A stretch of DNA of 46,320 nucleotides from a virus. Lineage: Duplodnaviria; Heunggongvirae; Uroviricota; Caudoviricetes. Below the pieces are notes generated by a model that was given only the letters and a program-made list of their open reading frames with translations, was not told the origin of the DNA and searched no databases. The stretch lies in the IMG/VR virus record IMGVR_UViG_2645727562_000022, positions 1 through 46,320 of that record; one strand, given 5' to 3'. Every line of letters begins with the position of its first letter. The stretch's first letter is position 1. The translations under genes and the position numbers were made by a program. This document shows positions 38,001 to 39,096 of this stretch, in pieces.

Positions 38001-38698
38001 TGAACCTATTTACTACGCGGCCTCAGGACACAGCAACCGATGCTAACTCTCAGCAATTCCTGATGCATCAGTTTCTGATGGGGAAATCATTCATCACGCT
38101 GGCGATCGTAACTTCGGTTAATGAATCCGGAGAAGTCGTGTCAGTAAAGCCAATGGTGGAGGGGTTCACTGGAGGAGGAGACCTAATTCCGAACTCGGTG
38201 ATTCACGGCGTTCCGGTCTGGAGACTTCAGCGAGGTGCTAGTGCGGTGATTATGCCTCCAGTAGAGGGTGATATTGGTCTGATAGCCATTTGCGATCGTG
38301 ATATCACAGCAGTGAAGAAGACAAAGCAATCTGCATTGCCCGGGTCGAATCGCACGCACAGCTATTCAGATGCTATCTATCTCGGTGGGGTACTGAACGC
38401 CGAACCAAGCCAGTATGTGAAGTTCGCTAATGATGGAATCGACATCGTGTCGCCACTGGTTGTGCAGGTGAACGGAAATACCGTAGTAGTCAATGCTGAA
38501 GACAAAATATCGCTCAATGCTCCCATCATTGAGATAAACGGGCAGCTTACTCAGGGCTCTGGTAGCTTCGGCGGTAACGCGACATTTGGCGGCACGATAA
38601 CCGTGACAGGAGAAGTCACAGGAAACGGAATCCATCTCAGTACGCATAAACATGGTGGTGTAGAATCAGGAGGTTCAACCACTGATGGGCCGCAATGA
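38000..38698 (+). CDS. Baseplate central spike (gpV-like)
   Basis: ATG overlaps the upstream TAA (TAATG); C-terminal Gly-rich tip with HLSTHKHGG (HxH) typical of spike apex proteins. Confidence 0.6.
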   Translation: MNLFTTRPQDTATDANSQQFLMHQFLMGKSFITLAIVTSVNESGEVVSVKPMVEGFTGGGDLIPNSVIHGVPVWRLQRGASAVIMPPVEGDIGLIAICDRDITAVKKTKQSALPGSNRTHSYSDAIYLGGVLNAEPSQYVKFANDGIDIVSPLVVQVNGNTVVVNAEDKISLNAPIIEINGQLTQGSGSFGGNATFGGTITVTGEVTGNGIHLSTHKHGGVESGGSTTDGPQ

Positions 38699-39063
38699 TG
38701 ATTGGTAAAGTTAAATTATTAATGGCATGCCTTGCATTGACATCGGTTTGCGCGTCAGCAAACGGAGATTCATTGAAAGAGACTTGCTACCAGAGCATGC
38801 GCTACAACGTTTATGTGCAACTCGCAGGCAATGCGTATTCCAGGAGCGACGCATCGGTATTTGAGAGAGAAGCAATGGATTCAGGGAATTGGCAGGGAAT
38901 AGATGCCTCAGAAACAAAACGGATGATCGCAATGTCTTCTAATAATCCATCTTCTGCTCAGTTTTCTATGCAGTACCAAAATGATGAGTCATTTGCTAAA
39001 GCCTATTCCAGTGGATACATAAATGACTGCTTGGCGCATCCGGATAAATACATATCCAGGTAG
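38695..39063 (+). CDS. Secreted moron protein with signal peptide (122 aa)
   Basis: N-terminal signal peptide (MMIGKVKLLMACLALTSVCASA|NG); three Cys in the mature part; followed by its own terminator; inserted between spike and baseplate genes. Confidence 0.55.
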   Translation: MMIGKVKLLMACLALTSVCASANGDSLKETCYQSMRYNVYVQLAGNAYSRSDASVFEREAMDSGNWQGIDASETKRMIAMSSNNPSSAQFSMQYQNDESFAKAYSSGYINDCLAHPDKYISR

Positions 39064-39074
39064 CAAAAACGTTA

Positions 39075-39096
39075 ACCCGCTTCGGCGGGTTTTTTA
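39075..39096 (+). terminator. Rho-independent terminator after the moron
   Basis: ACCCGC-TTCG-GCGGGT followed by TTTTTTATT. Confidence 0.7.

Follow-up and report, generated by a model that had tools for sequence, protein, structure and literature searches.

Introduction

A moron as defined by Juhala and Hendrix in 2000 (reviewed in PMC3594210) is extra DNA that is absent from close relatives, has a base composition unlike that of its neighbors, carries a promoter and a terminator of its own, and is expressed from the repressed prophage. Cor and Llp are receptor-blocking lipoproteins of phages, and Ltp of TP-J34 is a lipoprotein as well; classical superinfection exclusion requires expression in the lysogen. 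Morons within the tail operon can also be exclusion proteins, as described for HK97 gp15, which blocks DNA entry (PMC3594210). The tail lysozyme of T4 is inhibited by Spackle, a small helical protein of the periplasm that contains one disulfide (PMC7677548). Here, we describe ORF122, a gene for a predicted exported protein inside the baseplate gene block of an enterobacterial prophage, and the variable cargo slot in which it lies.

The prophage and its tail genes

The window, i.e., the whole stretch of DNA analyzed (46,320 nt), is a complete, lambdoid-type, enterobacterial prophage with a contractile tail of the E217/Pam3 type. It contains an integrase gene (27..1307), a lambdoid early region with CI-like repressor, CII, DnaB, and RusA, a Q-like antiterminator gene (18176..18787, + strand; phrog_753, "anti-termination protein Q-like", E = 5e-70), a lysis cassette of holin, lysozyme, and Rz (19584..20783), and terminase and head genes. 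The tape-measure or "lytic tail" protein (TMP; 34261..36039, + strand) was recognized by PDB sequence and PHROG matches and had no Pfam match. Its residues ~403 to 523 form a peptidoglycan-hydrolase domain with a pI of 8.9 that matches the PDB sequences 9vvp_L (Gp29; E = 3.7e-16) and 7q47_A (endolysin; E = 2.5e-10), and the protein also matches the PHROG "lytic tail protein" and endolysin families. Judged from these matches, TMP is a tail-borne peptidoglycan hydrolase.

The central spike gene (38000..38698, + strand) encodes a gpV-like protein with the HxH apex motif; it matches the Pfam families Apex, spike N-domain, and Phage_spike and is annotated as the spike in relatives. A program-made ORF list puts its start at position 37931 (37931..38698, 255 aa), overlapping the hub gene, but relatives and the alignment indicate that the ATG at position 38000 (232 aa) is the true start. 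Downstream lie the gene of the gp25/W-like wedge or sheath-initiator protein (39112..39468, + strand; phrog_120, baseplate wedge, with PF10934, Sheath_initiator, in homologous loci) and the baseplate J gene (39477..40709, + strand), which was the anchor for collecting related loci. At the prophage end, after the tailspike, an O-antigen acyltransferase (Acyl_transf_3) is encoded on the − strand (44760..45800); relatives have a gene for a GtrII-like glucosyltransferase or a DUF6311 protein in its place. From its gene content, this end appears to be a second variable conversion locus.

ORF122 encodes a predicted Sec-exported precursor

ORF122 (38695..39063, + strand) encodes a small precursor of 122 aa and 13.5 kDa and is flanked by the central spike gene on one side and the wedge and J genes on the other, as stated in the original prediction. 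The Sec signal peptide proposed there, with cleavage after ASA, is borne out at the level of prediction. The predicted signal peptide (aa 1 to 22; 38695..38760, + strand) has an n/h/c pattern with K5 and K7, an uncharged hydrophobic stretch from 8 to 22, and an AxA-type site formed by A-S-A at 20 to 22. In an alignment of 22 homologues, residues 3 to 21 vary freely yet remain hydrophobic; at the predicted cleavage site after A22, the Ala at −1 is invariant, and Ala, Ser, or Thr occupies −3. Conservation is high in the mature part, which begins with N/Q-G-D and is hydrophilic. The export call is based on a home-made heuristic for n, h, and c regions together with this evolutionary pattern; among the 39 + strand genes of the window, the heuristic selected ORF122, the holin, and the Rz spanin, as well as two others weakly.

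The precursor has four cysteines, at positions 12, 19, 31, and 112. C12 and C19 are part of the signal peptide and are not conserved among the 22 homologues, and therefore, ORF122 is not a lipoprotein, in agreement with the lack of a lipobox stated before. C31 and C112, which are invariant, are the only cysteines of the mature part, for which three had been counted. The mature part (100 aa; 38761..39060, + strand) is acidic and all-helical, with a mass of 11.3 kDa and a pI of 4.9, and its AlphaFold2 model is a six-helix bundle (pLDDT of 83.7). It is under purifying selection, with a dN/dS of 0.06 to 0.19. The signal peptide evolves freely, with a leader dN of 0.5 to 1.0 between lineages. Comparison of the ORF122 leader (38695..38760) with that of locus L008 (6001..6066) gave a dN of 0.90, whereas the mature parts differ by a dN of 0.04, which suggests that recombination at the left junction, which is conserved, replaced the leader.

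Among 5.8 billion proteins searched, there were 22 homologues with 55 to 95% identity, 21 of them 122 aa long, from the hosts Enterobacter, Cronobacter, and Hafnia, and a scan of genome contigs gave at least three loci. The family is rare, since an exhaustive HMM profile search of 1.8 billion cluster representatives recovered only eight 50%-identity clusters, by which five clusters at ~40% identity were added to the family. All homologues are encoded directly 3′ of the spike gene and occur only in this phage lineage; no chromosomal homologues were found. The proteins of loci L010 and L078 (125 to 129 aa) are probable divergent members (hhalign probability of 94%), and those of L069 and L071 (153 aa) are doubtful ones (10%). 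ORF122 had no family match in Pfam, PHROGs, NCBIfam, PADLOC, or PDB sequence profiles, and the remote-homology check, in which Cor, Spackle, and Tai4/Rap were included, gave no known family or fold. Nothing useful for ORF122 was obtained by megablast and tblastn of the phage collection (tblastn, no match in 50,697 phage records) or by literature searches on the locus or on Pantoea phage PA-1. ORF122 is a new, uncharacterized family, but its kind is already known, namely, the tail-region moron for an envelope protein.

Nearly identical tails occur with and without ORF122

To obtain an unbiased set, 64 loci were collected with the J protein alone. In 42 of them, the gap between spike and wedge genes is 46 nt, compared to 417 nt in the window, and three carry ORF122 itself. 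The gap of 46 nt without ORF122 is found in the Escherichia coli 1506 prophage, Enterobacter adelaidei, Pantoea phage PA-1, and many IMG/VR contigs, and in these cargo-less relatives the wedge gene comes straight after the spike gene. The DNA of the E. coli 1506 prophage is ~90% identical on both sides of the slot, and flanks overall are about 90 to 96% identical. The TMP C termini, a 267-aa protein, the hub, and the baseplate proteins are 97 to 100% identical between carriers and noncarriers, and hence, ORF122 is dispensable for the tail. Furthermore, its presence did not covary with the type of TMP lysin domain, hub, 267-aa protein, or spike body; therefore, no partner is indicated for it.

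These data largely support that ORF122 is an accessory gene, and in this respect its earlier designation as a moron holds: near-identical prophages lack it, their tails being 97 to 100% identical, and its GC content (42.8%) is lower than that of the spike gene (0.50), the wedge gene (0.50), and the window (0.49). Two features of a moron in the sense of Juhala and Hendrix are thus present, i.e., extra DNA absent from close relatives and a base composition unlike that of the neighbors. An own terminator is not, the hairpin after the gene being a backbone element (see below), and a −10-like box upstream of the gene is the candidate for an own promoter.

It is imaginable that ORF122 is a component of the virion or its assembly, such as a decoration of the spike tip, a spike chaperone, or a membrane-inserting pilot protein with an uncleaved N terminus, since the gene always adjoins the spike gene and its translation is coupled to that of the spike. 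However, the identity of tails (97 to 100%) without ORF122 makes a structural or assembly role unlikely. In addition, the N terminus acts like a cleaved leader, being variable up to an invariant AxA-type site, and in other relatives, this position is occupied by lipoproteins proper and by unrelated proteins. Taken together, we consider this explanation highly improbable.

A variable cargo slot separates the spike and wedge genes

The junction of spike and wedge genes is a variable cargo slot in this tail lineage, which is new here. With its conserved junctions and its near-exclusively exported content, the slot is a more interesting result than ORF122 itself. About a third of the J-anchored loci (22 of 64) are filled between spike and wedge, with gaps of 269 to 2425 nt, and the first position is taken by about 10 unrelated families. 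Besides ORF122, these include a signal-peptide protein of 100 to 103 aa with two cysteines that is unrelated to ORF122 (L043 and L060-62), lipoproteins of 204 to 207 aa with LSGC or LSAC lipoboxes (L039, L073, and L084), signal-peptide proteins of 132 aa (L046), 233 aa (L053), 193 aa (L066/70), and 125 aa (L068), two tiny membrane proteins (L067 and L076), and lipoproteins encoded on the minus strand (L074 and L075). Almost all first slot genes encode a signal peptide, a lipobox (LSGC, LSAC, ITGC, or ISGC), or a membrane helix, in contrast to about 2 strong cases of the export heuristic among the 38 other genes of the window. None of the exported first slot genes was assigned to a family by Pfam, NCBIfam, or PADLOC.

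Some loci carry further genes in the slot. A Macro-domain gene, which may be a counterdefense gene, lies between exported cargo and wedge, replacing the hairpin, in L014 (6357..7028) and L061 (3047..3643). The larger cargo of L046 (1637..3536), L060/L062, and L068 (2071..3570) includes an antirepressor-like ORF of 259 to 320 aa as well as minus-strand ORFs, i.e., small RHH (Arc-like) ones and one of 151 to 169 aa. Distant relatives (J protein 46% identical) have a conserved, nonsecreted ORF of 121 aa in the gap between spike and wedge (L080, 1799..2164; L081, 3281..3646; L082, 1134..1499), which is a different and possibly structural occupant. ORFs resembling HNH/AP2-type homing endonucleases were seen elsewhere, in the wedge/J gap of L009 from Enterobacter adelaidei (3505..4008) and before the tape-measure gene in L013 (970..1461).

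One explanation for such a gene is a lysogenic-conversion or host-fitness factor that alters envelope physiology without excluding phages, as in tolerance to stress, serum, bacteriocins, or antibiotics or in adhesion; lambda Bor and Lom may be compared. The anatomy of the locus is that of lambdoid tail-region morons (PMC3594210), the prophage already has a conversion gene in the O-antigen acyltransferase (44760..45800), and ORF122 is a predicted exported member of an orphan family with a patchy distribution. On the other hand, the family is restricted to this phage lineage, always glued to the spike gene, with no chromosomal homologues, and the turnover of unrelated exported proteins at one slot suggests an arms race rather than a housekeeping benefit. 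A fitness factor of this kind is therefore possible but, in our view, doubtful.

Both junctions of the slot are conserved

The left junction, or adaptor (38660..38698, + strand), consists of the last 13 spike codons, which comprise VESGGSTTDGPQ and the stop codon. The TGA of the spike gene overlaps the ATG of ORF122 as ATGA, and hence, ORF122 is wired into the late operon. A spike tail of the form ...GGVESGxSTTxGPQ is common to most of the unrelated cargo families, and in at least five of them, the spike TGA overlaps ATGATGAA in an ATGATGA junction that gives proteins starting with MMK. Cargo-less loci have neither this spike tail nor the ATGATGA junction, and their spike ends with ...TGxGxTxTPxN-TAA.

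Within the left junction lies a −10-like box, TAGAAT (38661..38666, + strand). The sequence TA(G/C)AAT, spelled by the Val-Glu/Gln-Ser codons of the spike, is present in 31 of 31 loci with cargo on the + strand but in none of 43 cargo-less loci and neither of two loci with minus-strand cargo; the loci compared are not independent of one another, and common descent of the left junction may explain part of the association. The cargo-less loci L044 and L045 encode the same VES as GTC GAG AGY. From this codon usage, TA(G/C)AAT looks like a −10 box that is kept at the DNA level. The match to a −35 box is 2/6 in the window and 5/6 in L046, L053, and L067, and a promoter scan gave no + strand promoter at the ORF122 locus. 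Since the −35 match is 2/6 and the scan was negative, expression of ORF122 in the lysogen is putative, which weighs against the host-fitness explanation given above and also against classical exclusion, which needs such expression.

On the right side, an intrinsic-terminator-like hairpin (39074..39097, + strand) is located 10 nt after the stop codon of ORF122 and 20 nt before the start of the wedge gene. It has the sequence AACCCGC-UUCG-GCGGGUU with a 7-bp stem and a UUCG loop, followed by U6, and a folding energy of −11.8 kcal/mol (z = −2.8). The original prediction of a strong terminator shortly after the gene is therefore correct as to the structure, but not as to its ownership: relatives that lack ORF122 have this hairpin before the wedge gene as well, and hence, it is not ORF122's own. 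With and without cargo, the motif AACCCGC-nnnn-GCGGGTTTTTT is found ~20 nt before the wedge ATG, with a GGAG ribosome site behind it, and the canonical hairpin motif occurs in 75 of 94 sequences, whatever the upstream content (e.g., L001, 6798..6822). In cargo-less relatives, the hairpin starts inside the spike stop codon, the TAA forming part of the stem. Among the cargo loci listed, 22 of 26 have the hairpin before the wedge gene. L084 has a different GC hairpin with a T-run at the same place (−18.4 kcal/mol), and this substitute argues that the structure itself matters. The hairpin is a feature of the phage backbone and the right boundary of the cargo slot.

In lambdoid late operons, Q-type antitermination lets transcription pass internal terminators. 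As the window encodes a Q-like antiterminator, its late operon should be read through internal terminators during lytic growth, and the hairpin is probably passed in this phase, whereas it would stop transcripts that are not antiterminated in the lysogen. A conserved hairpin in the middle of a tail operon may also be a candidate attenuator, an mRNA stabilizer, or a recombination boundary.

Possible function of ORF122

The best overall explanation, to which we assign a probability of roughly 0.45, is that ORF122 is a slot occupant that is exported by the Sec pathway and serves as an optional factor in envelope conflict or fitness, with exclusion as the likeliest role. For ORF122 itself, envelope-level superinfection exclusion is our best guess by analogy, although a tentative one. 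The precursor would be exported by Sec and cut after Ala22, as its sequence suggests, and once in the periplasm, the mature part would form a bundle of helices that is acidic, has a mass of 11 kDa, and probably contains a disulfide between C31 and C112. There, it would interfere with the crossing of the envelope by incoming phages or other contractile injection devices, in analogy to T4 Spackle, HK97 gp15, Cor/Llp, and TP-J34 Ltp. The protein would be made at least together with the Q-dependent late operon, by translational coupling to the spike. Expression in the lysogen may come from the weak −10-like box in the last spike codons, with the hairpin ending the transcript. Exclusion becomes more plausible because the slot holds many unrelated exported proteins, true lipoproteins included. 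The anatomy of the locus, in which an optional gene for a small, predicted exported, disulfide-capable protein is tied to the gene of the membrane-piercing spike, resembles this kind of exclusion most. The basic hydrolase domain of TMP could be a target here, although carriage of ORF122 did not covary with it.

A different explanation is that ORF122 acts late in the lytic cycle, as a periplasmic helper made along with the tail genes. It might guard the infected cell from lysis from without, or progeny from loss on infected cells and debris, by neutralizing the tail-borne peptidoglycan hydrolase or by masking an envelope component; tuning of lysis would also be possible. The ATGA overlap with the spike stop codon places ORF122 in the Q-dependent late operon, in line with this timing. 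Judged from sequence, the hydrolase domain of TMP is a possible target of a periplasmic inhibitor: the domain is basic (pI 8.9) and mature ORF122 is acidic (pI 4.9), as in the Spackle-gp5 pair. However, phages with 97 to 98% identical TMP lysin domains do without ORF122, the protein has no similarity to Spackle or known lysozyme inhibitors, and the lysis cassette is 18 kb distant. We therefore regard a late lytic helper as unlikely.

The exclusion reading may also be combined with the properties of the slot. In this model, the locus is at once an expression-ready cassette site and an envelope-defense island, and ORF122 is a new Spackle-like inhibitor. The left adaptor, i.e., the last ~12 spike codons, would contribute a −10 box, a GGA that resembles a Shine-Dalgarno sequence, and an overlapping start codon, and the backbone terminator would be the right boundary of the cassette site. 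Many unrelated exported proteins would be sampled by this site, which would resemble vgrG-linked immunity islands, and ORF122 would be aimed at the spike or the tape-measure peptidoglycan hydrolase of incoming contractile tails. Taken as a whole, this combination is rather improbable.

If the slot proteins are exclusion factors, they represent about ten orphan families of small proteins that act against phages at the envelope, and natural presence/absence controls on nearly identical tails are available for them. The locus would then be suited to study the passage of contractile tails through the Gram-negative envelope and ways to block this step. If ORF122 is only a minor fitness factor, it is an ordinary accessory gene. 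The ORF122 locus indicates that a moron can borrow a preexisting terminator of the phage backbone and that the last codons of a structural gene can serve at the same time as an adaptor through which exchanged cargo is expressed.

Comparison with known systems

ORF122 resembles the morons of tail operons, such as HK97 gene 15 and lambda lom and bor, in that it is extra DNA inside the tail gene block, differs in GC content from its neighbors, has a terminator behind it, and encodes a predicted envelope protein; a small promoter element may be a further likeness. Unlike in these morons, the terminator is part of the backbone and occurs in relatives without the gene, the promoter is represented by a −10-like box only, and the start codon overlaps the stop codon of the upstream structural gene. 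The product is predicted to be soluble in the periplasm, whereas gp15 is a membrane protein and Lom is an outer-membrane protein. A protein of the HK97 gp15/YebO type was rejected because ORF122 has a leader with a conserved AxA site, a hydrophilic mature part, and no match to the family.

The vgrG-linked immunity proteins of type VI secretion systems (Tai4, Rap1a/Rap2a/Rap2b) are small, exported, helical disulfide proteins, as is predicted for ORF122, and are likewise encoded beside a spike gene; the variable cargo region is a further point in common. A first hint of the Tai4/Rap immunity fold was lost when the mature part was modeled again, and so the similarity does not extend to the fold.

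With Cor of phi80, N15, T1, and the mEp phages and with Llp of T5, ORF122 shares that it is an optional gene for an envelope protein, exported by prediction in its case, next to tail or host-recognition genes; the likeness extends to the role if exclusion, as presumed here, is the function of ORF122. Unlike Cor and Llp, it has no conserved lipobox and no sequence similarity to them. The originally suggested likeness to Cor did not hold, and a Cor-type lipoprotein was rejected, as there is neither a lipobox nor a match in Pfam, PHROG, NCBIfam, or PADLOC. The lipoproteins in the slots of L039, L073, and L084 are also unrelated to Cor beyond the signal sequence. The comparison thus fails on membership in the family, but not on a possible mode of action.

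T4 Spackle, the product of gene 61.3, is likewise a small precursor with a signal peptide that is cleaved, in the case of ORF122 by prediction. As in Spackle, the mature part of ORF122 is, by prediction, an acidic helical bundle in which a disulfide probably joins an N-terminal cysteine to a C-terminal one, and the ORF122 phage, like T4, has a tail-borne peptidoglycan hydrolase. Spackle is a periplasmic inhibitor of the gp5 spike lysozyme, whereas the hydrolase of the ORF122 phage is located on the tape measure and not on the spike; furthermore, the T4 sp gene is an early gene distant from the tail genes, unlike ORF122. With an hhalign probability of 1% and no fold match, ORF122 was rejected as a homologue of Spackle. 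Despite this failed homology, ORF122 may be a functional analog of Spackle.
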